A DNA stretch of 64,000 nt from Shigella phage Shfl2. How positions within the stretch are numbered: the stretch's first letter is position 1; each line of letters begins with the position of its first letter. Position numbers and translations under genes: made by a program. The notes under the pieces are model-generated. The model was not told the origin of the DNA. It did no database searches and saw only the letters and a list, made by a program, of their open reading frames with translations. Of the stretch, positions 4,374-55,308 are shown piece after piece. The DNA lies in sequence record HM035025. One strand, 5' to 3'.

Positions 4374-5054
4374 TTATTTTAATGTTACGAAAGAAGAGTT
4401 GCGTGTTTCACGAATTAGAACTGATCCGTCACGATTAATGTAGTAAATTAAGCTAAATAAAGTTTGGTGTGCCGACGCGTGTTCAAAACTAGTTGGGTGA
4501 GATTTCCAATCCGGAGTTTCAGCAATCCACTGGTAAATCCACCAAGGAACCGTGCAGAATCCTGGATTTTTTCCAATCAACTGAAGATTCGGACTAAAGT
4601 TTTCCGGAAGAGTAAATACAGACGGCTTTTCAGATTCAATAATCTCAGCTACAGTCTGTTCGAATTTTTCTTCAATAAAAGGAGTATCTTCAATCAAAAC
4701 ATCGGTATTTTCAGGAATTTTATCCGTTTCTACCACTTCAATTTTAATGTCAGATTTAACCGGAGAATCAATCAGAAGTGCTGCTTCTGGATTGACTTCT
4801 TCATCGTCATATTTTAATCCCTCTGCAGCATCAGCAGCATTAATTAAGTCTTTAATAGATAACCCATCAGTCTCTGGCATAGGTTCACTAGCGAGCTTCT
4901 GGAGGGCTTCTTCAATATCATTAACGATATTATCAAAAGATTTATTCTTTTTGACCTTTATACCAAACTGTTCAGCATATTCAGCTAATTTAGCTTTAGC
5001 TTCTTTATTATCATCAAGAGCCTTCAGCTCTGCAATATAATCTTTATCTATCAT
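4374..5054 (-). CDS. inh: Inhibitor of prohead protease (Inh)
   Basis: 226 aa; position between hoc and segE as in T4. Confidence 0.75.
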   Translation of the reverse strand: MIDKDYIAELKALDDNKEAKAKLAEYAEQFGIKVKKNKSFDNIVNDIEEALQKLASEPMPETDGLSIKDLINAADAAEGLKYDDEEVNPEAALLIDSPVKSDIKIEVVETDKIPENTDVLIEDTPFIEEKFEQTVAEIIESEKPSVFTLPENFSPNLQLIGKNPGFCTVPWWIYQWIAETPDWKSHPTSFEHASAHQTLFSLIYYINRDGSVLIRETRNSSFVTLK

Positions 5055-5067
5055 AATATTTCCTCAG

Positions 5068-5075
5068 TATAAATA
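5068..5075 (+). promoter_or_regulatory. Late-promoter-like TATAAATA upstream of segE
   Basis: Exact TATAAATA 29 nt upstream of segE ATG. Confidence 0.45.
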
Positions 5076-5103
5076 TAGATATATTTATTACTCGGAAAAT
5101 AGT

Positions 5104-5721
5104 ATGTACCACTTTGTATATGAAACAACAAATCTAATAAATGGTAAAAAGTATATAGGAAAACACTCTACTGATGACTTGAATGATGGTTACCTTGGTT
5201 CCGGTAAGGCAATTCAGCAGGCTATAAAGAAATATGGTGAAAACAATTTCTCTAGAACAATACTAAAAGAGTTTAAAACTTCCGAAGAAGCGTACATGTA
5301 TGAAGAAGAAATTATAACTCCTGAAATAATAAAAAGCAAAAATTATTATAATATGAAACCTGGTGGAATTGGTGGAATTGTTATGACTACAGAGGTTATA
5401 GCAAAGATGAAAGAATCTTCCGCTAAGAGATTTGAAAACTCACCGGGCACGGTATTAGGTACAACTTGTTACACTAATGGAACTAAAAATATTTTTATTA
5501 AGCCTGGAGAACTTGTTCCAGAAGGATTTGTAAAAGGGATGGTTCATCCTAATAGAAAGTCCAGAAAAGGATGTAAAGTCAAACCGACTACCACAGGAAC
5601 TTTTTGGGTCAATAATGGTGCAATAAATAAATTAATACAACCAGACGGTATTATTCCCGACGGATTTATTAAAGGTCGTCTCATGAAAAGAGATTCTAAA
5701 GGCAAATTTAGTAAGGCATAA
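5104..5721 (+). CDS. segE: GIY-YIG homing endonuclease SegE
   Basis: 205 aa; N-terminal GIY-YIG-type motif (HFVYETTN...KYIGK...YLGSG); free-standing between inh and uvsW. Confidence 0.85.
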   Translation: MYHFVYETTNLINGKKYIGKHSTDDLNDGYLGSGKAIQQAIKKYGENNFSRTILKEFKTSEEAYMYEEEIITPEIIKSKNYYNMKPGGIGGIVMTTEVIAKMKESSAKRFENSPGTVLGTTCYTNGTKNIFIKPGELVPEGFVKGMVHPNRKSRKGCKVKPTTTGTFWVNNGAINKLIQPDGIIPDGFIKGRLMKRDSKGKFSKA

Positions 5722-5723
5722 TT

Positions 5724-7232
5724 ATGGATATTAAAGTACATTTTCACGACTTCAGTCATGTACGCATCGATTGTGAAGAGAGCACGTTCCACGAATTAAG
5801 AGATTTCTTTTCGTTTGAGGCCGATGGATATAGATTTAACCCTCGCTTCAGATATGGCAACTGGGATGGACGAATCCGTCTTTTAGATTATAATCGCCTT
5901 CTTCCATTCGGCTTAGTCGGACAAATTAAAAAGTTCTGCGATAACTTTGGCTATAAAGCCTGGATTGACCCACAGATTAACGAAAAAGAAGAATTATCAA
6001 GAAAAGATTTTGATGAATGGCTTTCTAAATTAGAAATCTATTCAGGAAATAAAAGAATTGAACCACACTGGTATCAAAAAGATGCAGTGTTCGAAGGATT
6101 AGTTAATCGTCGTAGAATTCTTAATCTTCCAACATCCGCAGGTAAATCTTTAATTCAAGCTTTGCTTGCACGTTATTATTTGGAAAATTATGAAGGTAAA
6201 ATTCTTATCATTGTTCCAACAACTGCTTTAACAACTCAGATGGCTGATGACTTTGTTGACTATCGTTTATTCAGTCATGCAATGATAAAGAAAATCGGTG
6301 GTGGAGCATCAAAAGATGATAAATATAAAAATGATGCACCAGTCGTTGTTGGTACATGGCAAACTGTAGTAAAACAACCGAAAGAATGGTTCTCACAGTT
6401 TGGAATGATGATGAATGATGAATGCCATCTTGCTACAGGAAAAAGTATTTCATCTATCATATCAGGTTTAAATAACTGTATGTTTAAATTTGGTTTGTCC
6501 GGTTCATTGCGCGATGGCAAAGCTAATATCATGCAGTATGTTGGAATGTTTGGTGAAATATTTAAGCCAGTAACGACTTCTAAATTAATGGAAGATGGAC
6601 AAGTAACTGAGTTAAAAATTAATAGTATTTTTCTTCGCTATCCTGATGAGTTCACTACTAAATTAAAGGGAAAAACTTACCAAGAAGAAATAAAAATTAT
6701 TACTGGGCTCAGTAAAAGAAATAAATGGATCGCTAAATTAGCTATTAAACTTGCACAAAAAGATGAAAACGCTTTTGTCATGTTTAAACACGTATCACAT
6801 GGTAAAGCTATTTTCGATTTAATTAAAAATGAATACGATAAAGTTTATTACGTATCAGGGGAAGTTGATACCGAAACACGCAACGTAATGAAAACCTTAG
6901 CTGAAAATGGCAAAGGAATAATTATAGTAGCTAGTTATGGTGTATTTTCTACTGGTATTTCAGTTAAAAATCTGCATCACGTTGTTTTAGCGCACGGTGT
7001 TAAATCAAAAATCATTGTATTACAAACAATCGGTCGTGTATTACGTAAGCATGGTTCTAAGACAATAGCAACAGTCTGGGACCTCATAGATGATTGTGGT
7101 GTTAAGCCAAAATCTGCTAATACGAAAAAGAAATATGTTCATTTGAACTATCTTTTAAAACACGGCATTGATCGTATTCAGCGCTACGCAGATGAAAAAT
7201 TCAATTACGTAATGAAAACAGTTAATTTATAA
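5724..7232 (+). CDS. uvsW: UvsW DNA/RNA helicase (SF2)
   Basis: 502 aa; Walker A PTSAGKS and DECH box. Confidence 0.9.
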   Translation: MDIKVHFHDFSHVRIDCEESTFHELRDFFSFEADGYRFNPRFRYGNWDGRIRLLDYNRLLPFGLVGQIKKFCDNFGYKAWIDPQINEKEELSRKDFDEWLSKLEIYSGNKRIEPHWYQKDAVFEGLVNRRRILNLPTSAGKSLIQALLARYYLENYEGKILIIVPTTALTTQMADDFVDYRLFSHAMIKKIGGGASKDDKYKNDAPVVVGTWQTVVKQPKEWFSQFGMMMNDECHLATGKSISSIISGLNNCMFKFGLSGSLRDGKANIMQYVGMFGEIFKPVTTSKLMEDGQVTELKINSIFLRYPDEFTTKLKGKTYQEEIKIITGLSKRNKWIAKLAIKLAQKDENAFVMFKHVSHGKAIFDLIKNEYDKVYYVSGEVDTETRNVMKTLAENGKGIIIVASYGVFSTGISVKNLHHVVLAHGVKSKIIVLQTIGRVLRKHGSKTIATVWDLIDDCGVKPKSANTKKKYVHLNYLLKHGIDRIQRYADEKFNYVMKTVNL

Positions 7233-16137: not shown

Positions 16138-18195
16138 CTACATCTTGAACTTTTTAGACATTCCGTTGATGTTAACCAAAGAAGCCAAGATTTGAGAAAC
16201 TTCGTTTTCCTCTTCTTTTGATTCTTCTACAAGGAATTGATTAAACCCAGCCATTGGACGAACTTCACCAGTTTCCATCAGATGATCGCCATCATATACC
16301 GATTCTTCTAATTGTTCAGAAGGAGGAACGATTGTGCCTTCGATTAGATACTTGTTATAAGCAGTTTCTTTCATCATGTACGTGCTTACTTTATTAATCT
16401 TCAACAAAATTCCACGCGGTAAAATAACTTCAGCTTCTGATGGAAATCCTGATAAATGACCTGGAACGATAACTTTGATTCGCTCAGCCCCTTTAATTAC
16501 CATACCTACGCTAGTTTCAGCATCTTCATTAGCATATGCAGAATGACTACCCATATGCATTAAATCTTCAGCATCAACGGAACCTTCTCCTTCACCAGAA
16601 AATACTGCACCGGAATCATCTAGAGCCATATAGTTTTTACCATGCTCACCGAAGATATTTGGTTTAAGCGATGTTGATACGAAGTTCTTGAAATAGAACA
16701 TTTTATTTTCAATATTATGACGTAAAGTTTTAAAGGTAACTTCTTGTCCACGGTAAAGTGTAGTTCCCGGAGGAAGAACTGATCCTTTGGCGAATGCAGA
16801 ATCCAGCGTCTCGATGTGTTTAATAGCTCGTTCCATGTATTCTTCACGGGTAGAATCTGGTTTACCCAAGAGGAACGAGTTCATTTCAACATATGAATCT
16901 GCACAATAATCTTCAATTACATCAGACTCAGCCTGAGTCAGTCCTTTTGGAGTTACTTCGGTGCTTGCGTATTCATATGCCTGAGCAGCAGATTCATTAA
17001 TCAATTTATAAATGCCATTCATGACAAATTGAATAATAGCTACCTTTTCGTCTGGCGTGGCTTTAGAACCTTTAACTAAATCATTGATAATTTTCTTAAT
17101 AATATCAAAGCTATTAGAAATATTAATGTCAGCGAGATCGCTCAAAATTTTATCGGTTTTATAATCAAAGAATTCTTTATTCTTTAAATATTCTTGAGAA
17201 CCTTGATATGTTATATCGCTCTGCAGCTTGATAGATGGATCACGTAAACGTGCATGGGCCAATGCAATATGATTTCGGAAGCTTTCTAGTTCATAATCAT
17301 TAGATTTAAAACGAGAAGCACTCCTCATACCACCGATAGCTCCTTTGCCGAAGTTTGAACCAATCTGAATAACGCCAGAGTTCATTGGTCCTTCTGCTTT
17401 ATATACCGGAACTTTAGATTCAAACTCTTGATATTTCTTAGCGGCGAAGCTATCACCCTGAAGTGAAGCATCGACAGTAGAATATTGAGCTTGTGCTGCT
17501 AATCGACGACTAATTTTAGTTTTCTGAATAACAGCTTGATCCGTGCGCTTATCATTTTCTAGAGCAATAGAAGCGGCAACAGCAACAGCTTTAGGAACAG
17601 CATTACCTGTTTTAACGTCTACATAAACATCACCAACCTTTGATTCAACTTTTGTGAATAACTCAGTTGAAATAGGAGGTACACCTGGAATGTCTTCTAA
17701 ATTAGCATTTTTACGATAAACCATAATATATGCATACTTTTTATCATAGTCCCAGATTTCCTTTAAAAGAACATATCGACCTGCTCCTTTAGTACGTACT
17801 AAACGGTCAGCAATAACTTGCATTTGACGAGCAGCGCCATTTGTTTTACTTTTTAGTACGCGGAATAGGCATGCGTCAATTTTATACTGTTTCATTGTTT
17901 GAAGAGCAGTATCAAAAACCGCATTAATGACACCAATTGGATTTCCACCCAAGTTTTTAAGTTTAACTAATGATAGTTTCTCATTAACACCTATCATTAC
18001 GATATGCATCATTTTATCGCCTGGCTTAACGTTTTTATTTGTATCACCGCCAGAGGTGTATGTACAAAATCTAAATCCAGGAAGCACACTTTCTTCACCG
18101 GCTTGAATAGCAAAAATTTGAGGTATTTTATGCTTAGGATTTAAGTTAACAACCGGCGCCGAAGCGCCGTCAAATAATTCTGTAATAAGTTCCAT
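16138..18195 (-). CDS. Alt-like ADP-ribosyltransferase paralog (685 aa)
   Basis: N-terminus MELITELFD as in packaged Alt; C-terminal R-S-E ART motifs (LYRGQ, FVSTSL, SEAEVILPRG). Confidence 0.8.
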   Translation of the reverse strand: MELITELFDGASAPVVNLNPKHKIPQIFAIQAGEESVLPGFRFCTYTSGGDTNKNVKPGDKMMHIVMIGVNEKLSLVKLKNLGGNPIGVINAVFDTALQTMKQYKIDACLFRVLKSKTNGAARQMQVIADRLVRTKGAGRYVLLKEIWDYDKKYAYIMVYRKNANLEDIPGVPPISTELFTKVESKVGDVYVDVKTGNAVPKAVAVAASIALENDKRTDQAVIQKTKISRRLAAQAQYSTVDASLQGDSFAAKKYQEFESKVPVYKAEGPMNSGVIQIGSNFGKGAIGGMRSASRFKSNDYELESFRNHIALAHARLRDPSIKLQSDITYQGSQEYLKNKEFFDYKTDKILSDLADINISNSFDIIKKIINDLVKGSKATPDEKVAIIQFVMNGIYKLINESAAQAYEYASTEVTPKGLTQAESDVIEDYCADSYVEMNSFLLGKPDSTREEYMERAIKHIETLDSAFAKGSVLPPGTTLYRGQEVTFKTLRHNIENKMFYFKNFVSTSLKPNIFGEHGKNYMALDDSGAVFSGEGEGSVDAEDLMHMGSHSAYANEDAETSVGMVIKGAERIKVIVPGHLSGFPSEAEVILPRGILLKINKVSTYMMKETAYNKYLIEGTIVPPSEQLEESVYDGDHLMETGEVRPMAGFNQFLVEESKEEENEVSQILASLVNINGMSKKFKM

Positions 18196-18198
18196 GAT

Positions 18199-20295
18199 TT
18201 ATCCTTGAACGAACTTGTAAGGCATGTTTGCAATATCTATGCAAGACGCAATAATTCCAAGAGATGATTCTACTTTTTGTTTAACATTTGATGAAACAAA
18301 TGATGCAAAGTCAACTCTGTCTTCTATTTCAATATCACCTGTCATTGCAACTACTTCACCAGTTTCCATTAGACGGTCACCGTCATAAATTACCGATTCG
18401 GTGAGTTCTTCGGTGGTCATAACTTCAGCTTGAATGAGTTTTGTATTATTAGACGTGGTTCCGTCATTATTAGAAGCATCAGTTATTTTATTAACTTTGA
18501 CCATCAATCCACGTGGTAGAATAACTTCAGCTTCTGTTGCTATTCCGAGACTTCCTGGATATATAACATTAACTTTATGAGCTCCATCAATTGCCCATCC
18601 TATTTGAACTTTAACGTATTCAGGATTTTCTTTATACGCTCTTATTTCGTTTGGATTAATAGTTATTCCTTCTTCATTTTTATCAACTGTCAATTCATTA
18701 CGAGCTTCTGGTTCTAAAAGACCAATACCAGCATGTGTAATTCCAAAACGTCCAAAAATGATAGGAGTTAAAGAAGTAGATACAAAATTTCTGAAATAGA
18801 ACACTTTATTTTTAACTAGTGCTTCGTATATAGGAGCAGTCATGCTTTGAGCACGATAAACTGTAATGCCTTCTGGTATACGGTCACCATTTTCAAAAGC
18901 TGAATCTAAGTTATTTATAGCAGATTCAATTTCTTTTTCACTCATTACATCATATCGTTCTGGATTGTAACGACCCAAAAGAAGATTATTGATGTCAGTA
19001 TATCCTGAACCACAATACTCTCTAATGCCGCGCTTTTGTGATGGAGTATATTTAGAACCATCACGGGCAATAGTAATATCAATCATTGGACCTGCACCAA
19101 TTCCAGAAAAACTATAAATCATTCGTTTGAGGAATTTAGTTTTTGCTGCGTTCCAGGAATTTTTAGTTATTTCTTCCCAGACTTCATCTGGCTGCCCTTT
19201 ACGAGTTTTATTATGTTTATCAAGCCATTTATCTTTGTATTCTTCAAAGAATTTATTAACAGCTGCTGCGTATTTCTCTAAACATTTTATTGAAGTAGTT
19301 GGTTCATTTTTAATCGCATTAAGAATTACATCTTTAATTTTTTCAGAAACTTCATTAACCTCACTTTTTGAAAAGAATTTATAGTCATAATGAAGTTCAT
19401 CTGCAGTTCCTTCAGCAATAATTTTTGCTGCTTTAGTTTTAGAAGCTAATGAATTAATTCCAAGCTTCATTTCTTCTGCTTCGGGAATTAAAGGAGCGGT
19501 AGCAGGTTTATTGAAATTAGCTGCGGTAGATTCATACTTCTGGAATAATTCACTTTCAAATCTAGAAGATTCCAATGATTGACTTTGCGCAATTGCTCTA
19601 CGGGAAATTTTAACTTTAACGATTACAGCTTGGTCAGAACGCTTATCATTTTCTTGCGCAATAGATGCTGCAATTGCCTCATTTTTAGTTACTTGGGCTC
19701 CAGTATCTTTATTGATATAAACATCACCGACTTTCGATTCAACTTTAGTAAAGAGCTCGGTACTAATTTCCGGAACTCCTGGAATGTCTTCTAGTGATAC
19801 ATTTTTGCGATGTATAAGAATATATGCATACTTTTTATCATAATCCCAGAGTTCCTTAAGAAGGACGTATCTGCCACCTGAACGACTACGGATAAGTCTA
19901 TCAGCAATAACTTGAATTTGTCGAGCTTGACCAGCAGTTTTAGACTTAAGAATACGGAGCATACAGGCATCAATTTTATACTGACGCATAGTTTGCATTG
20001 CAACAGTAAAAACTGAATTGATATAATTAATTGGGCTTGGACCAAGACCTTTCAATTTAGCAATTGAACCTTTAGCAGTTAATGTAAAAGGAACAATATG
20101 CATCATTTTATCGCCCATTTTTAAATCGCGATTAGTATCACCTCCAGATGTATAGGTACATAAACGAAAGCCTGGTTGTTCAATTGCGTCATCAACATGA
20201 ACTGAAAAAATTTGTGGTATTTTCTTCTTTGGATTTAAGTTTGTAATCGGAAGAGTAGTATCTTCGTCAAATAATTCTGTAATGAGTTCCATCAT
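18199..20295 (-). CDS. alt: Alt ADP-ribosyltransferase (698 aa), packaged internal head protein
   Basis: N-terminus MMELITELFD; ART motifs VYRAQ, FVSTSL, TEAEVILPRG; adjacent to gene 30 side. Confidence 0.75.
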   Translation of the reverse strand: MMELITELFDEDTTLPITNLNPKKKIPQIFSVHVDDAIEQPGFRLCTYTSGGDTNRDLKMGDKMMHIVPFTLTAKGSIAKLKGLGPSPINYINSVFTVAMQTMRQYKIDACMLRILKSKTAGQARQIQVIADRLIRSRSGGRYVLLKELWDYDKKYAYILIHRKNVSLEDIPGVPEISTELFTKVESKVGDVYINKDTGAQVTKNEAIAASIAQENDKRSDQAVIVKVKISRRAIAQSQSLESSRFESELFQKYESTAANFNKPATAPLIPEAEEMKLGINSLASKTKAAKIIAEGTADELHYDYKFFSKSEVNEVSEKIKDVILNAIKNEPTTSIKCLEKYAAAVNKFFEEYKDKWLDKHNKTRKGQPDEVWEEITKNSWNAAKTKFLKRMIYSFSGIGAGPMIDITIARDGSKYTPSQKRGIREYCGSGYTDINNLLLGRYNPERYDVMSEKEIESAINNLDSAFENGDRIPEGITVYRAQSMTAPIYEALVKNKVFYFRNFVSTSLTPIIFGRFGITHAGIGLLEPEARNELTVDKNEEGITINPNEIRAYKENPEYVKVQIGWAIDGAHKVNVIYPGSLGIATEAEVILPRGLMVKVNKITDASNNDGTTSNNTKLIQAEVMTTEELTESVIYDGDRLMETGEVVAMTGDIEIEDRVDFASFVSSNVKQKVESSLGIIASCIDIANMPYKFVQG

Positions 20296-27853: not shown

Positions 27854-28086
27854 AGTACGCCATACACCCTTTGTGCTTCAACTAATCCATCAAAATCCAG
27901 TTTAAGATGTGTTATTTGATCACCATCACCTGGATTCACAATTACTAATACTGAACGAGGAGTTTCGGTAATAACACGAACCGATGTTTCAGGAAATCGT
28001 TCAGAAACCTTATTTACCAATTCCTGAGCAAATAGTTTAACTTTTTCTTGGAATTCTTTAACAGTAATTGGTTTTTCACTTAGCAT
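27850..28086 (-). CDS. Hypothetical 78-aa protein (cd.2-like)
   Basis: ORF in cd-pseT early cluster. Confidence 0.45.
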   Translation of the reverse strand: MLSEKPITVKEFQEKVKLFAQELVNKVSERFPETSVRVITETPRSVLVIVNPGDGDQITHLKLDFDGLVEAQRVYGVL

Positions 28087-28607
28087 GTTGATCCCAGCTC
28101 CTTACTTTCAACGTTTTTAACTAATTTGACAGAAACTAATTCGGCATCTTGGGTAATCATTACCGGGCCTTCTTCATACTCTTCAAGATATTCTAGAGCT
28201 TTCTTTTTAGCTTCTTCCTTCGTATCAGTTTGAGCATAGATATAGAACATACAACCAGTAATACCTACTACTTTCCACTTAATTTCTTTATCAGTTTTAA
28301 TTTCAAATTTACTGATAGAGTCATCTTTTTGAACTTCTTCGAAAAAATAATATTCTGACATATAAGTAATTGAAAATAACGGGCTATCTTTATAAGATTC
28401 GCCCATTACATCAACAGCTTTATACCAGCAGTCATCAATTTCACGTTTAATGCTAATAACATTTTTCGCAGAATCTATTTTTACTTTAAATGAATTTTCC
28501 CCAATAAACTTGACAATTCGTTTATTAGCCCCGCAAGTTTCATTAAAAATATCTTTATATCCAGCTTTAAAGCGATAAACCTTATCTTCTTCAAACCATT
28601 TGCTCAT
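28080..28607 (-). CDS. Hypothetical 175-aa protein (cd.3-like)
   Basis: ORF preceded by early promoter at about 28625-28675. Confidence 0.5.
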   Translation of the reverse strand: MSKWFEEDKVYRFKAGYKDIFNETCGANKRIVKFIGENSFKVKIDSAKNVISIKREIDDCWYKAVDVMGESYKDSPLFSITYMSEYYFFEEVQKDDSISKFEIKTDKEIKWKVVGITGCMFYIYAQTDTKEEAKKKALEYLEEYEEGPVMITQDAELVSVKLVKNVESKELGSTC

Positions 28608-29338: not shown

Positions 29339-30563
<1,225 letters not shown>

Positions 30564-33610: not shown

Positions 33611-34780
33611 TTAAAAATATTTTTTAAAACTCATCATAACTTTATCATCAACATCATTATCAATCTGCGCAACAAGGTAAGATGACAGTTCTACTTCTTG
33701 CGGTGCAGATTGAACATTATCAGAATTAAGATATTCACGAATCCAAGGATACGGATGTTTAACCGGAGCATCAGTAATTGGGCATGGAAGACCGCACTGT
33801 TTCATACGAGATACAGTTAAGTAATCAATAAAGCTCCACATGCTATTTGTATTTAATCCAGGAACATCGCCATCTTTAAATAAATGAACTGCCCAGTCTT
33901 TTTCTTGACGGTTAACTTCCATGAAAATATCAACTGCTTCTTGTTCACATTCTTGGGCAATTTTAACCCATTCATCACCATCAGTGCCAAGTTGAAGTTG
34001 ACGAATAATATATTGGGTGCCTTTAAGGTGAAGCTGCTCATCACGTGCAATGAACTTCATAATCTTGGCATTACCTTCCATGATTTCCATGTTCTTATGG
34101 AAGTTAAAGGTACATGCGAAAGATACATAAAAACGAATAGCTTCCAATGCGTTGATTACGTGCAGGCAGAGGTAAAGAGATTTCATTAGTGCTCGTTTAG
34201 TACATTCAACAACTTTGCCTAACTCTTCTTTACGAAATCCTTCTGATAAAATTCCTTCATAATCTTCAACCGCATTCTGATATTCACGAGTCTTAACTAG
34301 AACATCATCGTAATAGCGACCAATGGACTCGGCACGTTTCATAATAGCTTTATCTAATACAATCTCGTCAAATACTTTTGACGGATCAGTATAAAGATTT
34401 CGCATGATATGAGTATATGAACGACTGTGAATAGTTTCACTAAAAGTCCATGTAGCAACCCATGTATCAAGACTTGGGTCTGAAATTAACGACATAAGTA
34501 CAGCAGACGGCGCACGACCCTGAATGCTATCCAAAAGTGATTGATACTTCAGGTTATTAGTAAAAATATCTTGCTGATATTGAGGAAGCTTGTTAAATTG
34601 TGCAGCATCCATCATCAAGTTTACTTCTTCAGGACGCCAGAAAAATGATAATTGCTTTTCGGTTAAATCTTCAAAAACTTTATGACGTTGAATATCATAA
34701 CGCGCAATACCGAGACCTGAACCGAAGAACATAGGTTCTTTTAAAACATCAACTGGATTTGTATTAAAAACTGTGCTCAT
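33611..34780 (-). CDS. nrdB: Ribonucleotide reductase small subunit, uninterrupted
   Basis: 389 aa continuous ORF; no intron. Confidence 0.9.
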   Translation of the reverse strand: MSTVFNTNPVDVLKEPMFFGSGLGIARYDIQRHKVFEDLTEKQLSFFWRPEEVNLMMDAAQFNKLPQYQQDIFTNNLKYQSLLDSIQGRAPSAVLMSLISDPSLDTWVATWTFSETIHSRSYTHIMRNLYTDPSKVFDEIVLDKAIMKRAESIGRYYDDVLVKTREYQNAVEDYEGILSEGFRKEELGKVVECTKRALMKSLYLCLHVINALEAIRFYVSFACTFNFHKNMEIMEGNAKIMKFIARDEQLHLKGTQYIIRQLQLGTDGDEWVKIAQECEQEAVDIFMEVNRQEKDWAVHLFKDGDVPGLNTNSMWSFIDYLTVSRMKQCGLPCPITDAPVKHPYPWIREYLNSDNVQSAPQEVELSSYLVAQIDNDVDDKVMMSFKKYF

Positions 34781-34831
34781 AAATTTTCCGCTTAGTTAAT
34801 AGATAGTGACTCGTCCGTGAGTCAAATTATA

Positions 34832-37096
34832 TCATAATTTACAGGATGAACAATCTTCAGCTTTTGGAGTTTCTATTTCATAATCATCAGTACCAGAACC
34901 ATCGCGGGTATTATGATAATAGAAATTTTTTCCGCCAAAATACCAAAAATACAAAAGGTCATCAATCATTATTGACATTGGAACCTTTCCTTTTGGAAAA
35001 ATCTGCGGGTCATAATATGTATTTGCTGAAGCTGATTGACATACCCATTTAAGCATAATAGCTACCTGCGTAAGATAAGGTTTATTACCTTTCTTAGCTA
35101 ATTTCCACGTATAATCATAGAGGTCTATGTTATGCTCAATATTGGGCACGACTTGATTAAAGGAACCCTCTTTTGATTCTTTAACAGAGACTGGTCCACG
35201 TGGAGGCTCGATACCGTTTGTACTGTTAGAAACTTGGGAAGATGACTCACATGGCATAAGTGCTGATAATGTGCTATTACGGATGCCAAAGAGCTTAAGG
35301 TCTTCCCGCAGCGACGACCAGTCACAAACGTATTTTGGAGCTGCGATTTGGTCAATCTTTTTATTGTACCAGTCGATAGGTAATTCGCCTCGAGACCAAC
35401 GAGTGTCTGAATAATATTCGCAAGGTCCTTTTTCTTTGGCGAGCTTAATGGATGCTTTAATGAGTCCATACTGTAATCTCTCAAATAGCTCATGTGTTAA
35501 ATCGTTAGCGTCTTCATAAGAAGCAAAATTACTTGCCAGCCAAGCTGCATAGTTAGTAACACCTACACCGAGATTTCGACGCTTTTTAGCTTTTTCTGCT
35601 TCAGGAACTGGATATCCTTGGTAGTCCAAAAGATTATCAAGAGCACGAACTTGAACTTCTGCCAATTCATTAATTTTATCTTGGTCTTGCCAATCAAAGT
35701 TATCTAACACAAATGCAGATAACGTACACAATCCAATTTCAGCATCAGGACTATTCACGTCATTTGTTGGAATAGCAATTTCACAACACAAGTTGCTCTG
35801 ACGAATAGGTGCCTTTTCACGAATAAATGGAGTATAGTTATTCGTATTATCAATGAACTGTACATAAATCCTTGCTGTTCCTGAGCGTTCAGTCATTAGC
35901 AATTCAAACAGTTCACGGGCTTTAATACGCTTTTTACGAATATTAGGGTCTTTTTCTGCGGCTTCATATAATTCACGGAAACGGTCTTGGTCTTTAAAAT
36001 AAGAATAATAAAGCTCACCACCCATTTCATGTGGACTGAACAAAGTAATGTAGTCGTTCTTTCCAAAACGTTCCATCATTAGGTCATTCAGTTGAACGCC
36101 ATAATCCATATGACGAATACGGTTTTCTTCTACGCCTTTGTTATTTTTCAAAACGAGAAGATTTTCAACTTCCAAATGCCAAATAGGATAATAAGCAGTA
36201 GCAGCGCCGCCACGAATTCCACCCTGTGAGCATGATTTAACAGCAGTCTGAAAATGTTTCCAAAAAGGAATAACACCAGTATGACGTACTTCACCTGTAC
36301 CAATCTTAGAACCTTCGGCACGAATCATACCAACGTTAATACCAATTCCAGCGCGTTTGGAGATATATTCAACAATTGAAGCAGAAGCTTTGTTAATAGA
36401 CTTCAGCGAATCACCTGCTTCAATAACAACGCATGAACTAAACTGCCGAGTTGGAGTACGACAGCCAGCCATAATAGGAGTTGGTAATGAAATCTGTCGA
36501 GTAGATACCGCTTCATAAAAACGAATAACGTGTTTTAATCTATCAACAGGTTCATCTTGATGCAATGCCATTCCAATAGTCATAAATGCAAACTGTGGAG
36601 TTTCATAAATTTGACCAGTGGTTTTATCTTTAACGAGATATTTTTCTTTTAATTGCATCGCCCCGGAATAAGTAAATTCCATATCCCGCTCGTGCTTAAT
36701 TTTTGATTCTAAAAATGTAATTTCTTCTGCTGAATATTTTGACAGCAGTTCAGGGTCATATTTACCTTCATTTACACAGTAAGAAATATGGTCAATAAAT
36801 GAACGTGGTTCATATTGTCCGTAAACATGCTTACGAAGAGCAAACATTAAACAGCGAGCGGCTACGTATTGATAATCAGGCTCTTCAACTGAAATAGAAT
36901 TCGCAGCAGCCTTAATTACAATGGTTTGAATGTCATCAGTGGTCATTCCATCACGGAGATATGATTTAATATTTTCATATAATTCATAAGGATCTACAGA
37001 TGTTCCTTCGGCTGCCCAAGATAAAACTTTAATAATTTTTTGCGGGTCAAAGCTCTGAGAAACACCACTACTTTTGATAACATTAATTAATTGCAT
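34832..37096 (-). CDS. nrdA: Ribonucleotide reductase large subunit
   Basis: 754 aa as in T4 NrdA. Confidence 0.95.
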   Translation of the reverse strand: MQLINVIKSSGVSQSFDPQKIIKVLSWAAEGTSVDPYELYENIKSYLRDGMTTDDIQTIVIKAAANSISVEEPDYQYVAARCLMFALRKHVYGQYEPRSFIDHISYCVNEGKYDPELLSKYSAEEITFLESKIKHERDMEFTYSGAMQLKEKYLVKDKTTGQIYETPQFAFMTIGMALHQDEPVDRLKHVIRFYEAVSTRQISLPTPIMAGCRTPTRQFSSCVVIEAGDSLKSINKASASIVEYISKRAGIGINVGMIRAEGSKIGTGEVRHTGVIPFWKHFQTAVKSCSQGGIRGGAATAYYPIWHLEVENLLVLKNNKGVEENRIRHMDYGVQLNDLMMERFGKNDYITLFSPHEMGGELYYSYFKDQDRFRELYEAAEKDPNIRKKRIKARELFELLMTERSGTARIYVQFIDNTNNYTPFIREKAPIRQSNLCCEIAIPTNDVNSPDAEIGLCTLSAFVLDNFDWQDQDKINELAEVQVRALDNLLDYQGYPVPEAEKAKKRRNLGVGVTNYAAWLASNFASYEDANDLTHELFERLQYGLIKASIKLAKEKGPCEYYSDTRWSRGELPIDWYNKKIDQIAAPKYVCDWSSLREDLKLFGIRNSTLSALMPCESSSQVSNSTNGIEPPRGPVSVKESKEGSFNQVVPNIEHNIDLYDYTWKLAKKGNKPYLTQVAIMLKWVCQSASANTYYDPQIFPKGKVPMSIMIDDLLYFWYFGGKNFYYHNTRDGSGTDDYEIETPKAEDCSSCKL

Positions 37097-38558: not shown

Positions 38559-38906
38559 TCAATACGGTTTAGCATCAAATTTTCTTTCGATTTCAGGAGT
38601 GAAATATAATTCTTTACCACGTTTGGAAAAACGACCAATAATATGATAATTATTCTCATCAAACGTGATATTACCAATATCCATAGCTTTCAACCAAATA
38701 TCGATATTTCTATCTAGTTTTATATCAAAATTCCAATACGGAGAACTATTACCAAAAATACTACAAGCGGATTCAGTGAAACAACTGCTATAAATCTTGT
38801 CTTTAGGAACTACTAATTGATAGACGCCTTTAATAAACTGAGGACCCTGCCATTTTGGTTGTTTCGCGTCTTTTTCTAATAGAATAGGGTAATAATTAAA
38901 ATTCAT
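38559..38906 (-). CDS. Unassigned ORF inserted between frd and td (about 115 aa from ATG; 119 aa from GTG)
   Basis: ORF with no motif I recognise, occupying a junction where T4 frd and td overlap. Confidence 0.55.
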   Translation of the reverse strand: MNFNYYPILLEKDAKQPKWQGPQFIKGVYQLVVPKDKIYSSCFTESACSIFGNSSPYWNFDIKLDRNIDIWLKAMDIGNITFDENNYHIIGRFSKRGKELYFTPEIERKFDAKPY

Positions 38907-38926
38907 ATTTTCCGCCACGTGTTATT

Positions 38927-41773: not shown

Positions 41774-41872
41774 TTTTATTTCCTTTTTAATTTAATTAAC
41801 AGTTGGTGCTATGACGATGTATGACCTCATAGCTGGTCAGTGAGATAATTATAATCTATTTATAATAAGCAA

Positions 41873-49163: not shown

Positions 49164-49171
49164 TATAAATA
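49164..49171 (+). promoter_or_regulatory. Late promoter TATAAATA for gene 36
   Basis: Exact TATAAATA 24 nt upstream of gp36 ATG. Confidence 0.6.
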
Positions 49172-49194: not shown

Positions 49195-49854
49195 ATGGCT
49201 GATTTAAAAGTAGGTTCAACAACCGGAGGCTCTGTCATTTGGCATCAAGGAAATTTTCCATTGAATCCAGCCGGTGACGATGTACTCTATAAATCATTTA
49301 AAATATATTCAGAATATAATAAACCACAAGCTGCTGATAACGATTTCGTTTCTAAAGCTAATGGCGGTATTTATCTAAACCGAGTTACCTTTAATCAGGG
49401 TATTCAAGTCCCGGGAGCTGGCAATGGTCTGACCGGGATGTTTGTTGGGCCAGGTGATGGAGCAACTTATGATAATGTTAACCTTGATATAATATCTTGG
49501 TATGGTATCGGATTTAAATCATCTCAAGGAACAGGACCTAGGACAATTGTTTTTAACGTTCGTGACGGTGAAATTTCGGCCCGTGGTAATATAAATTCAC
49601 AGCGTCAGGTGCGAGCCGAAGCCGCAGCGCCCATTGCCGCAAATGACCTTACTAGAAAGGACTATGTTGATGGAGCAATAAATACTGTTACGGCAAATGC
49701 GAACTCTAGAGTGTTACGATCTGGCGACACTATGACGGGTAACTTAACCGCACCAAACTTTTTTTCGCAGAATCCTGCATCTCAACCTTCACACGTTCCG
49801 CGATTTGACCAAATCGTAATTAAGGATTCTGTTCAAGATTTCGGCTATTATTAA
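49195..49854 (+). CDS. 36: Long tail fibre distal connector gp36
   Basis: 219 aa. Confidence 0.85.
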
Positions 49855-49862
49855 GAGGACTT

Positions 49863-52800
49863 ATGGCTACTTTAAAACAAATACAATTTAAAAGAAGCAA
49901 AACCGCAGGTGCACGTCCTGCTGCTTCAGTATTAGCCGAAGGTGAATTGGCTATAAACTTAAAAGATAGAACAATTTTTACTAAAGATGATTCAGGAAAT
50001 ATCATTGATTTAGGTATTGCTAAAGGCGGTCAAATTGATGGAAATGTGACTATTGATGGAACTTTACGCGTCAATGGACCAATAAACAACTTTGGAAATT
50101 TTTCTACAAGTGGTACTATTACGGCAAGTAATATTGTTTCTGCTACAGTATTCAGATCAACATCCGGTTCATTTTATACAAGAGCAATAAATGATACTGC
50201 AAATGCCCATCTTTGGTTTGAAAATACAAATGGCTCAGAACGTGGCGTTTTATATTCAAAACCACAGTCTGAAAATGAAGGCGTAATTACAATGCGCGTT
50301 CGTCAAGGAACCGCAGCAGGGGCTCAAAATTCAGAATTTCATTTCATTTCTACTGATGGCGGTATCTTCCAGGCACGCAAATTAACTGCTTTAACTTCTA
50401 TTAGTACACCAACTATTAGTGTTAATTTAATTAATCACGATTCTAAAGCCTTTGGACAATATGATTCACAGTCATTAGTTCAGTATGTTTATCCTGGAAC
50501 AGGTGAAACAAATGGCGTAAACTATCTTCGTAAAGTTCGTGCTAAATCAGGTGGCACTATGTGGCATGAGCTTTGTACTGCTCAGACTGGCCAGGCTGAT
50601 GAAATGTCATGGTGGACCGGTAATACTCCTCAGTCTAAACAATACGGTATTCGTAATGACGGACGAATGGCTGGACGTAATAGCCTTGCATTAGGTACAT
50701 TCACTACAAATTTCCCGTCTAGTGATTATGGCAACGTCGGTGTAATGGGCGATAAGTATCTTGTTCTCGGTGACACTGTAACTGGCTTGTCATACAAAAA
50801 AACTGGTGTATTTGATCTAGTTGGCGGTGGATATTCTGTTGCTTCTATTACTCCTGACGGTTTCCGTAGTACTCGTAAAGGTATATTTGGTCGTTCCGAG
50901 GACCAAGGCACCACATGGATTATGCCTGGCACTAATGCCGCTTTCTTGTCTGTTCAAACGCAAGCTGATAATAACAATGCTGGAGACGGCCAGACGCATA
51001 TTGGGTACAATGCTGGCGGTAAAATGAGTCATTATTTCCGCGGTAAAGGCAAAACTAATATTAATACTCAGGAAGGTGTAGACGTTAACCCAGGTATATT
51101 GAAGTTAACCACCGGCGGTGAAAGTATTAGCTTTAATGCCGCAACTGGAAGTATTAATTCTACATTAGCTTTTCGTCTTAATAAAGGCATAATTATTGAT
51201 GGACCTGATAATCAGGGATTCCAGTTTAACGCCCCGACGGCTGCAGATGGTACTAGAAGTATATACTGGAACAGTGGTACTCGCGCAGGTCAAAACAAAA
51301 GCCCTGTTACAGTTAAAGTGTGGGGTAATTCATTTAACACATCTGGCGATCGTGCTCGTGAAACGGTTTTTGAAGTAGCTGATGGACAAGGTTACCATTT
51401 TTATTCTCAACGCGTAGCTCCTGCACCTGGTTCGACTGTCGGGCCTATTCAACTCCGAGTTAATGGTGGTTTATTAACTTCAGGTAGTATTGTTACTTCT
51501 GGTTCTATTACAACCGAATCAAGCTTAGTTGCAAATAATGGATTGTCTGTAAATGGACAAGCTAAATTTGGCGGAACAGCAAACGCACTAAGAATTTGGA
51601 ACGCTGAATATGGTGCTATTTTCCGTCGTTCAGAAAGTAACTTTTATATTATTCCAACCAATCAAAATGAAGGCGAAAGTGGAGACATTCACAGCTCTTT
51701 GAGACCTGTGAGAATAGGATTAAACGATGGCATGGTTGGGTTAGGAAGAGATTCTTTTATAGTAGATCAAAATAATGCTTTAACTACTATAAACAGTAAC
51801 TCTCGCATTAATGCCAACTTTAGAATGCAATTAGGACAAAATGCTTATATAGATATTGAGGCTTCTGATGGAGTTCGTCCAACAGGTTGTGGTTCATTTG
51901 CATCTCAGAATGACGTAAACGTCAGAGCTCCAATTTATATGAATATAGAGCGTACTGCTACTTCTGAATACATTCCTATTGTTAAACAACGGTATGTAAA
52001 GGGTGATAGTACTTATTCTATTGGCACCTTAATTTCTCAAGGAGACTTCCGCGTCCATTATCACCAGGGTACTAGTACTACCGGCACTGATTTAAGTTGG
52101 GAATTCCGTCGCACAGGCGATTTCCGCGCGGCAGGTAAAATTATTGCTGGTGCTGCTACTCTTGGCACTGATGGTAATATTACTGGCGGTTCTGGTAACT
52201 TTGCTAACCTGAATACCACATTAAATCGTAAGGTAAATTCCGGATTTGTAACATACGGTGCAACGGCCGGATGGTACAAATTCGCTACAGTAACGATGCC
52301 ACAATCCACTTCTACGGTCTTCTTTAAAATAGCCGGTGGTTCTGGATTTAATAGCGGATTATTCACACAATGCAATATTGCTGAAATTGTTTTACGTACT
52401 AGTAATGAAAGACCTGCTGACTTAAATGCTGTATTATATACAAGAACATCTGGACTGTATAGCGCAGCATTTAGAAATATTGCAGTTAACAATGTCTCTG
52501 GAAATACATATGACATTTATGTTTATGCTGGAACATATTGTAATCAACTAGCGTGTGAATGGTCATGTACCGAAAATGCTACTGTTAGCGTTATTGGTAT
52601 TAACTCATCTACACAATCACCTATAGATGCTCTTCCAGATACAGCAGTTAACGGTCAAGTTGCTAATGTTCTTAATAACTTGGTTGATCGTGGTAAAGCA
52701 AAACGTTATGTAGCAGAATCTGAAATTGCTATTAATAACCAAACGGGTCTTCGTATTACGAGTAATTCTGATAGATCAGGTTCTAATTCCGTTTTATTTC

Positions 52801-53798
52801 GAAATGACGGTGGAAGCTTCTATATTTTACTGACTGACAAAAACTCTTCAGACGGCGATAATAAAGCAACTGAAGGCGATTGGAATGGAAAACGACCGTT
52901 TTCAATCGATATGACTGCTGGTACTGTTCGTCTTGGCGAAAATACTTCTTTTGATAAAGATATTACTATTAATGGAAACATTAATTCACGAGTTAAAGCT
53001 GCCGGACAATGGAGTGTTAGCTTTTCTGCTATTTCAGATGTGACTCGCGACAATTCTGCATTCTTAGCGAATACGGGTGGCATTTCCAAGACAAGTCAAG
53101 CTTATTACCCGCTATTTTCTGGATACAGTTTTTTAACTGACGCGGGTTATCTTCAATCGTTTGAGTTTGGATGGTTAGGTGTTTCTGGTACTTGGCGCCA
53201 AGGCATTATTCGCATGCGTGGTGACAACCCATCGGGGCAACAGGCTCGTTGGACTTTTGATATGGACGGAACATTTTATGCTCCTATACTATCATGCGGA
53301 TCTGCGAGAGCATTCGGTGTCAATACATCAAATGGTCTCGGTGGAAATAGTATAACATTTGGTGATAGCGATACTGGTATTAAGCAAAATGGCGATGGAT
53401 TATTAGACATATATGCGAACAACGTACAAGTATTCCGTTTCCAAAACGGTGATTTGTACTCATACAAAAATATAAATGCTCCAAACGTTTATATTCGTTC
53501 TGATATTCGTTTAAAATCCAACTTTAAACCTATCGAAAATGCACTTGATAAAGTTGAAAAACTTAACGGTGTCATTTACGATAAAGCTGAATACATCGGT
53601 GGAGAGGCAATTGAAACTGAAGCGGGTATTGTGGCTCAAACGTTACAAGACGTTTTACCAGAAGCTGTCCGTGAAACAGAAGACAGCAAGGGTAATAAAA
53701 TACTCACTGTTTCTTCTCAAGCCCAGATTGCTCTTCTGGTTGAAGCTGTGAAAACACTTTCTTCTCGTGTAAAAGAACTTGAATCTAAACTTATGTAA
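49863..53798 (+). CDS. 37: Long tail fibre distal subunit gp37, T2-type with C-terminal intramolecular chaperone-like domain
   Basis: 1311 aa (T4 is 1026); C-terminal about 110 aa helical/coiled segment ending ...LESKLM. Confidence 0.9.
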
Positions 53799-53827
53799 AA
53801 GAGGGCTTCGGCCCTCTAAGGATTTTT
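53799..53827 (+). terminator. Hairpin after gene 37
   Basis: AGAGGGC-UUCG-GCCCUCU hairpin followed by short T-run. Confidence 0.45.
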
Positions 53828-53828
53828 A

Positions 53829-54620
53829 ATGGCAATTGTAGGTGTTCCTGGCTGGATTGGTGAATCTGCCGTGAATGAAACAGGACAGCGTTGGATGGAT
53901 GCTGCAATGAGAGCAGTTCGTGTTTCAGTTCCCGGTTGGATGAGTTCAATGGCTGGGCAATCTAAAGAAGTATATTATAGCGTTGGTGCTAGCAATTCTT
54001 ACAATAAAGACACACTAATAAATTGGATAAAAGCCCAAGGCAGTACTCCTGTTGTTATTACTATTACAGGAAATATTGTTTCTCAATCTACTGGTGTTCC
54101 ATGCTTAGATTTTCCTAGCTCATTAACTAATGCGTATGTTACCTTAAATATTAATAGCGGGGTTCATGTATTAGGTCGGGGAGGAAATGGCGGAAGTAAC
54201 TCTGCTGGTGGAGCAGGAGGAACTGCAATAAATAACGGAATTGGAACTCGTTTAAGAATAAACAATAATGGTATTATTGGTGGTGGCGGCGGTGGCGGCG
54301 CAGGTGCTAGATACAATCCTTTCCCTCAAATGGATATGAAATTTGGCGGCGGAGGAGGTCGTCCATTTGGTGCTGCCGGTGCAGCCGGTGGCGGCGCAGC
54401 GGCAGCATCTGCCGGTACAATTTCTGCTCCTGGTAAAGGCACTGTTTCTGGTGTTCACCATGGAGGAGATGGTGGAGATTTGGGAGCTGCTGGCAAATCT
54501 TCATATATTCAAGGTGGTACTGGAGGAACTGTTCACTCGGGTGGTGCTGCGGGCAAAGCTGTTACTGGTAATGCTCCAACTTGGACTAAAGTTGGTACAA
54601 TATACGGTTCAAGAGTATAA
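53829..54620 (+). CDS. 38: T2-type receptor-binding tip adhesin gp38 with glycine-rich motifs
   Basis: 263 aa (T4-type gp38 is 183 aa); several poly-Gly islands (GGNGGSNSAGGAGG, GGGGGGGAGA, GGGGGRPFGAAGAAGGG). Confidence 0.85.
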   Translation: MAIVGVPGWIGESAVNETGQRWMDAAMRAVRVSVPGWMSSMAGQSKEVYYSVGASNSYNKDTLINWIKAQGSTPVVITITGNIVSQSTGVPCLDFPSSLTNAYVTLNINSGVHVLGRGGNGGSNSAGGAGGTAINNGIGTRLRINNNGIIGGGGGGGAGARYNPFPQMDMKFGGGGGRPFGAAGAAGGGAAAASAGTISAPGKGTVSGVHHGGDGGDLGAAGKSSYIQGGTGGTVHSGGAAGKAVTGNAPTWTKVGTIYGSRV

Positions 54621-54651: not shown

Positions 54652-55308
54652 ATGGCAGCACCTAGAATATCATTTTCGCCCTCTGATATTCTATTTGGTG
54701 TTCTAGATCGCTTGTTCAAAGATAACGCTACTGGGAAGGTTCTTGCTTCCCGGGTAGCTGTCGTAATTCTTTTATTTATGATGGCGATTGTTTGGTATAG
54801 GGGAGATAGTTTCTTTGAGTACTATAAGCAATCAAAGTATGAAACATACAGTGAAATTATTGAAAAGGAAAGAAATGCACGCTTTGAATCTGTCGCCCTG
54901 GAACAACTCCAGATAGTTCATATATCATCTGAGGCAGACTTTAGTGCGGTGTATTCTTTCCGCCCTAAAAACTTAAACTATTTTGTTGATATTATAGCAT
55001 ATGAAGGAAAATTACCTTCAACAATAAGTGAAAAATCACTTGGAGGATATCCTGTTGATAAAACTATGGATGAATATACAGTTCATTTAAATGGACGTCA
55101 TTATTATTCCGATTCAAAATTTGCTTTTTTACCAACTAAAAAGCCTACTCCCGAAATAAACTACATGTACAGTTGTCCATATTTTAATTTGGATAATATC
55201 TATGCTGGAACGATAACCATGTACTGGTATAGAAATGATCATATAAGTAATGACCGCCTTGAATCAATATGTGCTCAGGCGGCCAGAATATTAGGAAGGG
55301 CTAAATAA
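54652..55308 (+). CDS. t: Holin T
   Basis: 218 aa; single N-proximal TM segment, large periplasmic domain. Confidence 0.9.
   Translation: MAAPRISFSPSDILFGVLDRLFKDNATGKVLASRVAVVILLFMMAIVWYRGDSFFEYYKQSKYETYSEIIEKERNARFESVALEQLQIVHISSEADFSAVYSFRPKNLNYFVDIIAYEGKLPSTISEKSLGGYPVDKTMDEYTVHLNGRHYYSDSKFAFLPTKKPTPEINYMYSCPYFNLDNIYAGTITMYWYRNDHISNDRLESICAQAARILGRAK

Follow-up and report, generated by a model that had tools for sequence, protein, structure and literature searches.

The tail-fiber genes of Shigella phage Shfl2 (record HM035025) raise the question of what kind of fiber tip accompanies the T4-like backbone of this phage and which host receptor the tip would recognize. The window analyzed here is a stretch of 64,000 nucleotides, to which all positions refer. 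The products of genes 37 and 38 are very probably the distal half of a T2/S16-type long tail fiber and its receptor-binding tip, in a phage of Tequatrovirus. We propose that gp37 would be produced as a 1311-aa precursor, in which a 99-aa Peptidase_S74 chaperone would aid the folding of the trimeric β-helical fiber and then split itself off by a Ser-Lys autoproteolytic cut between R1212 and S1213. The cleavage may expose a flat hydrophobic tip, on which one gp38 monomer would dock via W9, W22, and W37; the C-terminal glycine-rich motifs of gp38 would form a polyglycine-II sandwich, and its hypervariable loops would recognize an outer-membrane protein of E. coli, most probably Tsx. Such a tip arrangement is already known and is the commonest in T-even phages, with near-identical copies published. 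The present analysis repeats the modular tail-fiber/adhesin picture of Trojet et al. 2011 and of the S16 structure work and has little meaning beyond annotation; the allele is already found in public phage genomes.

Locus layout and mosaic structure

The backbone is that of a Tequatrovirus, and its collinearity with T4 is as stated in the initial annotation: starting at T4 position 107311, the stretch follows T4, except that the T4 mobile elements are missing and a few small indels occur. The coordinates and lengths given there for gp37 (1311 aa) and gp38 (263 aa) match exactly. Gene 38 lies directly 3′ of gene 37 and 5′ of the holin gene t (Table 1), as expected for a gp38 of the T2/T6/S16 type; genes 37 and 38 are separated by a 30-nt spacer, and gene t begins 31 nt past gene 38. 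The spacer contains a hairpin, 3′ of which AAGGA and then the gene 38 ATG are found. A scan from gene 35 to gene t revealed no second T4-type late promoter motif before gene 37 or gene 38. Since the motif 5′ of gene 36 is the only one in this interval, it probably drives genes 36-37-38 as a lone late promoter, a role assigned from T4 late-promoter knowledge. Minus-strand ORFs within gene 37 (52061-52516 and 52820-53089) were rejected as ORFs that shadow the long gene on the plus strand, and tRNA and Rfam scans of the whole 64-kb window were both empty.

Table 1. Features of the tail-fiber locus of Shfl2, in window coordinates
Feature	Position	Strand	Basis
T4-type late promoter motif TATAAATA, 5′ of gene 36	49164..49171	+	Exact motif match
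Gene 36, distal hinge connector, 219 aa	49195..49854	+	PF03903, blastp, identity profile
Gene 37, long tail fiber distal subunit (predicted 1311-aa precursor)	49863..53798	+	ORF, profile and blastp matches
gp37 aa 1-60, conserved N-terminus	49863..50042	+	83-100% identity to T4, T2, and UFV13
gp37 aa ~61-789, mosaic shaft	50043..52229	+	Identity profiles
gp37 aa ~790-1212, distal non-T4 module	52230..53498	+	97-100% identity to vB_EcoM-UFV13
Conserved connector block	53320..53950	+	90-100% identity to T2 in 30-nt steps, ~100% overall
Predicted autocleavage site R1212|S1213 in NVYIR|SDIRLK	53496..53501	+	Alignment to S16 site
Intramolecular chaperone (Peptidase_S74), gp37 aa 1213-1311, 99 aa	53499..53795	+	Pfam, alignments
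GC-rich hairpin AGAGGGC TTCG GCCCTCT with TTCG loop, gene 37/38 spacer	53800..53817	+	
Gene 38, tail fiber tip adhesin, 263 aa	53829..54620	+	ORF, profile and structure-database matches
gp38 N-terminal attachment domain, Gp38_N, aa 1-42	53829..53954	+	Pfam, alignment
gp38 specificity domain, aa 116-247	54174..54569	+	Glycine-rich motifs separating hypervariable segments
Holin gene t, right-hand conserved flank	54652..55308	+	97-99% identity to T4, T2, and T6

The lengths of gp34, gp35, gp36, and holin t are 1289, 371, 219, and 218 aa, respectively, compared with 1289, 372, 221, and 218 aa in T4 and 1290, 371, 219, and 218 aa in T2. The T4-like lengths ascribed earlier to genes 34-36 are uninformative because T2 has equal lengths. 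The product of gene 36 is 98.6% identical to that of T2 and 81% to that of T4, and the middle of the gene (49367-49666) displays 97-99% identity to T2 but ~60% to T4.

Within gp37, residues 1-60 are presumed to form the end that joins gp36. In the shaft that follows, patches near-identical to T4 (aa 271-390 and 571-660), to T2 (aa 511-660), and to vB_EcoM-UFV13 (aa 121-210) alternate with stretches at 30-70% identity, and a gp34-like trimerization repeat is located at aa 493-617. Homology to T4 ends ~60% into the gene, near codon 790 (window ~52230); beyond this point, up to and including gene t, identity to UFV13 DNA is 97-100%. The distal module displays just 23-73% identity to T2 up to ~aa 1150. 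The connector block reaches from the gp37 tip across the chaperone into the N-terminus of gp38. In view of the many patches in the identity profiles, one clean breakpoint between T4 and T2 was rejected. The boundary previously placed within or just before gene 37 does lie within it, at ~codon 790, but not just before it, and there is more than one. Judged from this mosaic map, which can be read directly from the profiles, the locus is the product of modular recombination, and the distal gp37 module together with gp38 (~52230-54620) occurs nearly as in UFV13, 3′ of a patchwork, partly T4-like shaft. The conserved block at 53320-53950 and the junction near 52230 are possible module-swap sites for engineering.

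The gp38 adhesin and its predicted receptor

The family membership of gp38 is directly evident from profile and structure-database matches. The protein matches Pfam GP38 (PF05268) at aa 47-263 over the full profile (4.8e-69; 233 bits, curated cutoff 25) as well as Gp38_N (PF21721; 8.2e-18; 64.6 bits, curated cutoff 25). It can be aligned over its whole length with the solved S16 gp38 (6F45_D, 8.7e-48), and it aligns also with a second gp38 structure, 9v85. As judged by these matches, gp38 is a T2/T6/S16-type adhesin, consistent with its earlier designation as a T2/T6-type adhesin rather than the 183-aa chaperone of T4. Three tryptophans in its N-terminal domain (W9, W22, and W37) are invariant across T2, T6, UFV13, Kha5h, and AV114; in S16, three N-terminal tryptophans dock gp38 on the gp37 trimer (PMC6851490), and an equivalent docking is predicted here by homology.

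The specificity domain is defined according to the GRM/HVS scheme for gp38 adhesins, taken from PMC3157838. Glycine accounts for 23% of gp38 overall and for 36% of aa 116-247, with runs at G151-G157 and G173-G177. In the alignment, invariant glycine blocks occupy residues 116-121, 152-157, 173-181, 213-216, and 238-242, and divergence is concentrated between them, which bears out the poly-glycine islands and variable segments described earlier for the 263-aa protein. The single-sequence AF2 model of gp38 is unusable (pLDDT 34.8), and full-length homology to 6F45_D is the sole source from which a polyglycine-II sandwich fold is inferred. The adhesin-type gp38 is present in 760 phage records, compared with 297 that carry the T4-type gp38; the adhesin arrangement is therefore the majority state of such phages, and T4, rather than Shfl2, is the exception.

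The sequence of gp38 is 99.2% identical to those of RB18 and UFV13, differing from the latter just at R28K and S261A, 97.7% identical to that of Bas43 TadeuszReichstein, and 97.0% identical to those of AV114/AV115. Bas43 has been typed as Tsx-dependent (BASEL S5 table), AV114/AV115 have been shown to depend on Tsx (PMC10844046), and the HVS2 core PFPQM is common to gp38 of Shfl2 and of the Tsx binder T6. Because of its 97-98% identity to adhesins from the Tsx-requiring Bas43 and AV114/115, gp38 probably, by homology, has the E. coli nucleoside channel Tsx as its receptor. The locus thereby allows prediction of the primary receptor and of a likely resistance route, namely the loss of tsx. The designation of the cassette as T2-type consequently applies to its architecture but not to its specificity: gp38 is 63% identical to that of T2, and its close relatives use Tsx.

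The hypervariable segments are not identical to those of a Tsx-typed member, since four positions differ from Bas43 and AV114: N163H and K171I in HVS2, and H211Y and D214N in the HVS3/GRM4 region. These substitutions cast some doubt on Tsx, and an unlikely alternative retains the same architecture but assumes that, through N163, K171, H211, and D214, the adhesin has shifted or widened its range to another outer-membrane protein, for example OmpA, OmpF, or OmpW, or to a Tsx variant. Single or few changes in hypervariable segments have indeed switched receptors in relatives: a change of receptor can result from one to three HVS substitutions, as in PST versus T6 and SV76 versus T2 (PMC3157838), and Q206L switches OmpF to OmpW (bioRxiv 10.64898/2026.04.02.716166). 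A literature search found no receptor data for RB18 or UFV13, which share the allele. However, three adhesins typed as Tsx-dependent, which come from two genera, are 97-98% identical to gp38, and at the four aligned columns the Tsx binder T6 carries S, T, N, and N; these positions thus vary in T6 too, indicating that change there is tolerated among Tsx binders. It is quite unlikely that the RB18/UFV13 sub-allele (N163, K171, H211, and D214) is a natural receptor-specificity variant of a Tsx-binding adhesin; if this were true, the sub-allele might bind another loop variant of Tsx, or else a second porin, which would give the phage a host range unlike that of Bas43 and AV114.

The gp37 C-terminus and the T4-type tip

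In gp37, residues 1213-1270 match the full Peptidase_S74 profile (1-58; Pfam, 56.5 bits against a cutoff of 22, 3.5e-15). The gp37 C-terminus aligns with S16 gp37 (6F45_A) such that SDIRLK falls on SDRRIK of S16, and S1213 and K1218 of the S-D-x-x-x-K motif, the predicted nucleophile and the predicted base, respectively, are invariant across six phages (Shfl2, T2, T6, UFV13, Bas43, and AV114). Published cleavage sites are DLNVS^SDRRIKK in S16 and DVYIR^SDGRLKI in the fPS phages (PMC7917993). By homology to these, gp37 most likely cuts off its own folding chaperone. The putative cleavable chaperone noted earlier at the gp37 end is recovered as a separable module with a conserved Ser-Lys motif, although its size is 99 aa and not ~110 aa. 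In a PDB search with the C-terminal 145 aa of gp37, a weak match to the MyRF chaperone domain (0.00095) was obtained besides S16 gp37; marginal matches to influenza HA2 (E at least 0.017) in the same search were regarded as coiled-coil noise.

It is very improbable that the Peptidase_S74-like segment is instead a retained, uncleaved structural domain. Cleavage in Shfl2 is inferred rather than observed, and the single-sequence AF2 model of the C-terminal 162 aa, in which strands precede S1213 and helices predominate beyond it, has too low a confidence to be used (pLDDT 45.5); however, the Ser-Lys motif is intact and invariant, and it aligns to the S16 cleavage site (PMC7917993). The chaperone domain is, moreover, 95-100% identical to its T2 counterpart. 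T2 gp37 itself reportedly loses a C-terminal piece during assembly, a finding ascribed to Drexler et al. 1986, which counts against an uncleaved segment.

The features of a T4-type tip were not encountered. No blastp match was found between gp38 and T4 gp38, and tblastn with T4 gp38 over the whole window yielded only chance matches (E above 2). Across aa 883-998, T4 gp37 carries seven H-x-H motifs, whereas gp37 of Shfl2 has none of these needle repeats beyond the shared HYH at aa 732. The notion that gp38 is only a T4-like assembly chaperone and that the gp37 tip itself binds the receptor is scarcely credible: although in some records the homologues carry the names ‘tail assembly protein’ or ‘distal long tail fiber assembly catalyst’ and T2-type gp38 has been described as acting first as a chaperone and then staying on the tip (PMC7917993), T4 gp38 similarity and the T4 needle and head motifs of gp37 are both absent, gp38 matches the adhesin family and the tip-bound S16 gp38 structure over its full length, and gp38 swaps have switched the receptor in relatives (10.64898/2026.04.02.716166).

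Comparison with known systems

T4 shares the collinear backbone, with gp34 and gp35 96-98% identical and gp37 homologous over aa 1-~790, including patches at 93-100%. However, its receptor binder is the gp37 needle/head with H-x-H repeats, and its gp38 is an unrelated 183-aa chaperone. T2 (AP018813) resembles Shfl2 in architecture: its gp37 is long (1341 aa) and ends in a chaperone, and its gp38 is a 262-aa adhesin. The two gp37 proteins, however, are only 63% identical overall, that of Shfl2 being 30 aa shorter. The gp38 specificity domain has diverged as well (63% overall identity, with blastp aligning aa 1-147 only), and T2 uses FadL/OmpF as its receptor, whereas relatives of the Shfl2 allele use Tsx. 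In T6, gp38 is 55% identical overall, and gp37 is much shorter, at 994 aa.

In the S16 gp37-gp38 tip complex (PDB 6F45), gp38 has the tryptophans for docking and the glycine-rich motifs also seen in Shfl2, and the gp37 chaperone shares the S-D-x-R-x-K cleavage motif. However, S16 binds Salmonella OmpC, its gp37 carries DLNVS before the cleavage site in place of NVYIR, and the hypervariable loops differ. AV114/AV115 are members of Mosigvirus with Tsx-dependent adhesins close to gp38 of Shfl2. Closest in gp38, at the 99.2% identity given above, are RB18 (MH553563) and vB_EcoM-UFV13 (KU867876); UFV13 has an equal gene order, 36-37-38-t, and a gp37 that is 97-100% identical over aa ~790-1311. UFV13 differs from Shfl2 in the shaft at aa ~270-780, where most 30-aa windows fall at 3-73% identity and a single patch (aa 571-600) reaches 90%, in the middle of gene 36 (~60% at the DNA level), and in the length of gp37, which is 1286 aa compared with 1311 aa in Shfl2.

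A glycine-rich gp38 adhesin in a T4-collinear backbone

Gene 37 (gp37, the distal long tail fibre) and gene 38 (gp38, the tip adhesin) occupy exactly the coordinates and lengths of the initial annotation, both on the plus strand. They lie between the genes for gp34 (1289 aa), gp35 (371 aa) and gp36 (219 aa; PF03903) upstream and holin t (218 aa; PF11031) downstream. gp38 matches the full Pfam profile GP38, the phage tail fibre adhesin (4.8e-69), as well as Gp38_N (8.2e-18), and aligns over the full length with two solved gp38 structures, that of S16 (6F45_D, 8.7e-48) and 9v85; its membership in the adhesin family and its motifs are thus directly observed. Similarity to the 183-aa T4 gp38 was undetectable, both by direct comparison of gp38 and anywhere else in the window; such an alignment, named in the initial annotation as evidence against its own reading, is therefore absent. 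The poly-glycine islands described there are borne out by a glycine content of 23% for the whole protein and 36% for residues 116-247, and by runs at G151-G157 and G173-G177. Three tryptophans dock S16 gp38 onto the gp37 trimer (PMC6851490); their counterparts W9, W22 and W37 are invariant among T2, T6, UFV13, Kha5h and AV114 in the alignment. The glycine-rich motifs (GRMs) are conserved and divergence is found between them, a classical pattern that fits the scheme of five GRMs together with four HVSs (hypervariable segments) of Trojet et al. 2011 (PMC3157838).

The proposed T4-collinear backbone is likewise seen, with collinearity running from T4 position 107311 onward, and several isolates of Tequatrovirus and its relatives, e.g., SA20RB and CrRp10, share 96-97% identity with it across 24 kb. 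The T4 segments annotated as segG, mobE, the nrdB intron (I-TevIII) and the td intron (I-TevI) are missing from the window, being skipped by blastn, and no RNA families were found in the whole window with Rfam. Two tandem alt-like ADP-ribosyltransferase genes are both intact; since T4 has a single alt gene and a decayed alt.-1/alt.-2 duplication remnant, both copies have been kept whole in Shfl2. Three small ORFs lie in stretches without a long T4 blastn match, and none of the three has a Pfam match.

Positions of the cassette, its identity blocks and other features in the window
Feature	Position	Strand	Description
alt-like gene	16138-18195	-	685 aa; PF03496
alt-like gene	18199-20295	-	698 aa; PF03496
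Small ORF	28080-28607	-	175 aa
Small ORF	30243-30563	-	106 aa
Small ORF	38559-38918	-	119 aa
T4 mobile-element gaps	~34113-34116, ~34780-34836, ~37965, ~41836-41872		blastn against T4
Late promoter motif	49164		
gp36 middle	49367-49666		T2 97-99%; T4 and UFV13 about 60%
Gene 37	49863-53798	+	1311 aa
gp37 N-terminus	aa 1-60		conserved in all compared phages
gp37 shaft	aa 61-~789		patchwork; 30-70% outside near-identical patches
Near-identical patches	gp37 aa 271-390, 571-660 (T4); 511-660 (T2); 121-210 (UFV13)		
Candidate recombination motif	52170-52229		53-87% per 30 nt
End of T4 homology	~52230		gp37 codon ~790
UFV13-identical block	~52290 to end of gene t		97-100% to vB_EcoM-UFV13
Distal gp37	aa 790-~1150		23-73% to T2
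T2-identical block	53320-53950		90-100% to T2
Hairpin	53800-53817		GC-rich; TTCG loop
Gene 38	53829-54620	+	263 aa
Remainder of gp38	beyond 53950		diverges from T2

Mosaic structure of genes 34-38

Pairwise identity profiles were used to build a mosaic map. gp34 and gp35 are 93-98% identical to T4, T2 and T6 alike, while gp36 is 98.6% identical to T2 and 81% to T4; because its middle is T2-like and distant from both T4 and UFV13, this hinge connector bears a separate exchanged patch that does not depend on the gene 37/38 module. gp37 is 98.4% identical to UFV13 over aa 785-1149 (tblastn) and lacks the H-x-H repeats of the T4 needle domain. Based on these profiles and the missing repeats, the switch from T4-type to T2-type is placed inside gene 37, about 60% along, as one junction among many. 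Thus, of the boundary suggested earlier, "within or just before gene 37", the first location holds, the second does not, and the junction is not the sole one. The T4-like lengths of genes 34-36, which had been offered in its favour, are uninformative since T2 has the same lengths. Starting ~60 aa before the end of mature gp37, the T2-identical block runs through the chaperone and the spacer and takes in the attachment domain of gp38.

The segment 52170-52229 is moderately conserved against T4, T2 and UFV13 simultaneously; it is a candidate recombination motif, because it lies exactly at the point where homology to T4 stops and identity to UFV13 sets in.

Predicted chaperone cleavage and fibre assembly

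Pfam Peptidase_S74 ("chaperone of endosialidase") matches gp37 residues 1213-1270 with 56.5 bits (cutoff 22), which confirms the C-terminal chaperone; however, the module, from S1213 in NVYIR|SDIRLK to M1311, measures 99 aa rather than about 110. SDIRLK aligns onto SDRRIK of S16 gp37 (6F45_A), for which autocleavage at DLNVS^SDRRIKK is described, and cleavage in the fPS phages was predicted by the authors at DVYIR^SDGRLKI (PMC7917993). Taken together with the invariance of S1213 and K1218 in T2, T6, UFV13, Bas43 and AV114, the S74 match and the S16 alignment argue strongly for self-cleavage at R1212/S1213. In a low-confidence AF2 model, given no weight, S1213 is preceded by strands and followed mainly by helices, in loose agreement with the "helical" segment first described. 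Weak PDB matches of the gp37 C-terminus to influenza HA2 look like noise.

The late promoter motif at 49164 is the probable starting point of transcription, as no such motif precedes gene 37 or gene 38. By analogy with S16, T2 and T6, gp37 would trimerise with the aid of its chaperone, which would then cut itself off at R1212|S1213; a gp38 monomer would dock on the exposed tip via W9, W22 and W37, and its hypervariable loops, carried by a polyglycine sandwich, would bind Tsx, the E. coli nucleoside channel. The 30-nt spacer of genes 37 and 38 contains a hairpin followed by AAGGA and ATG, and T2 has exactly the same surrounding sequence (53800-53829); the hairpin may serve to stabilise RNA or as a partial terminator.

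Predicted receptor and relation to known cassettes

gp38 is 99.2% identical to its homologues in RB18 and UFV13 (differing from the latter only by R28K and S261A), 97.7% to Bas43 TadeuszReichstein, 97.0% to Mosigvirus AV114/AV115 and about 90% to Krischvirus isolates. The primary receptor of Bas43 is listed as Tsx (BASEL S5 table), and Tsx use by AV114 and AV115 has been shown experimentally (PMC10844046); no receptor data for RB18 or UFV13 were found in the literature. Since the receptor is predictable from gp38 phylogeny (PMC12032242), the close identity to Tsx-typed adhesins makes Tsx the likely receptor of Shfl2 gp38. Differences from the Tsx-typed alleles include N163H and K171I in HVS2, as well as H211Y and D214N in the HVS3/GRM4 region, and one to three HVS substitutions have altered the receptors of relatives (PMC3157838; bioRxiv 10.64898/2026.04.02.716166); however, all four of these columns are likewise variable in T6, a Tsx binder, which counts against this caveat.

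A near-same allele is found in three genera, including Mosigvirus (5001-5789 of the AV114 locus, L007). In Krischvirus, gene 38 lies away from the holin in FL37/FL38 (PMC12032242) and about 55 kb from gene 37 (bioRxiv 10.64898/2026.04.02.716166). Both features point to spread of the adhesin across genera.

The adhesin arrangement is the majority state, as stated by Trojet et al. (PMC3157838), with 760 phage records carrying such a gp38 versus 297 for the T4 type (tblastn). Judged by sequence identity, neither the distal module nor the adhesin allele is new, both occurring in UFV13 and RB18, and the best match to the full cassette covers 94% of the query at 94% identity. The locus overall is thus already known; only its particular combination of shaft patches is new, and such a combination is what the modular recombination well described for genes 37 and 38 would be expected to yield.
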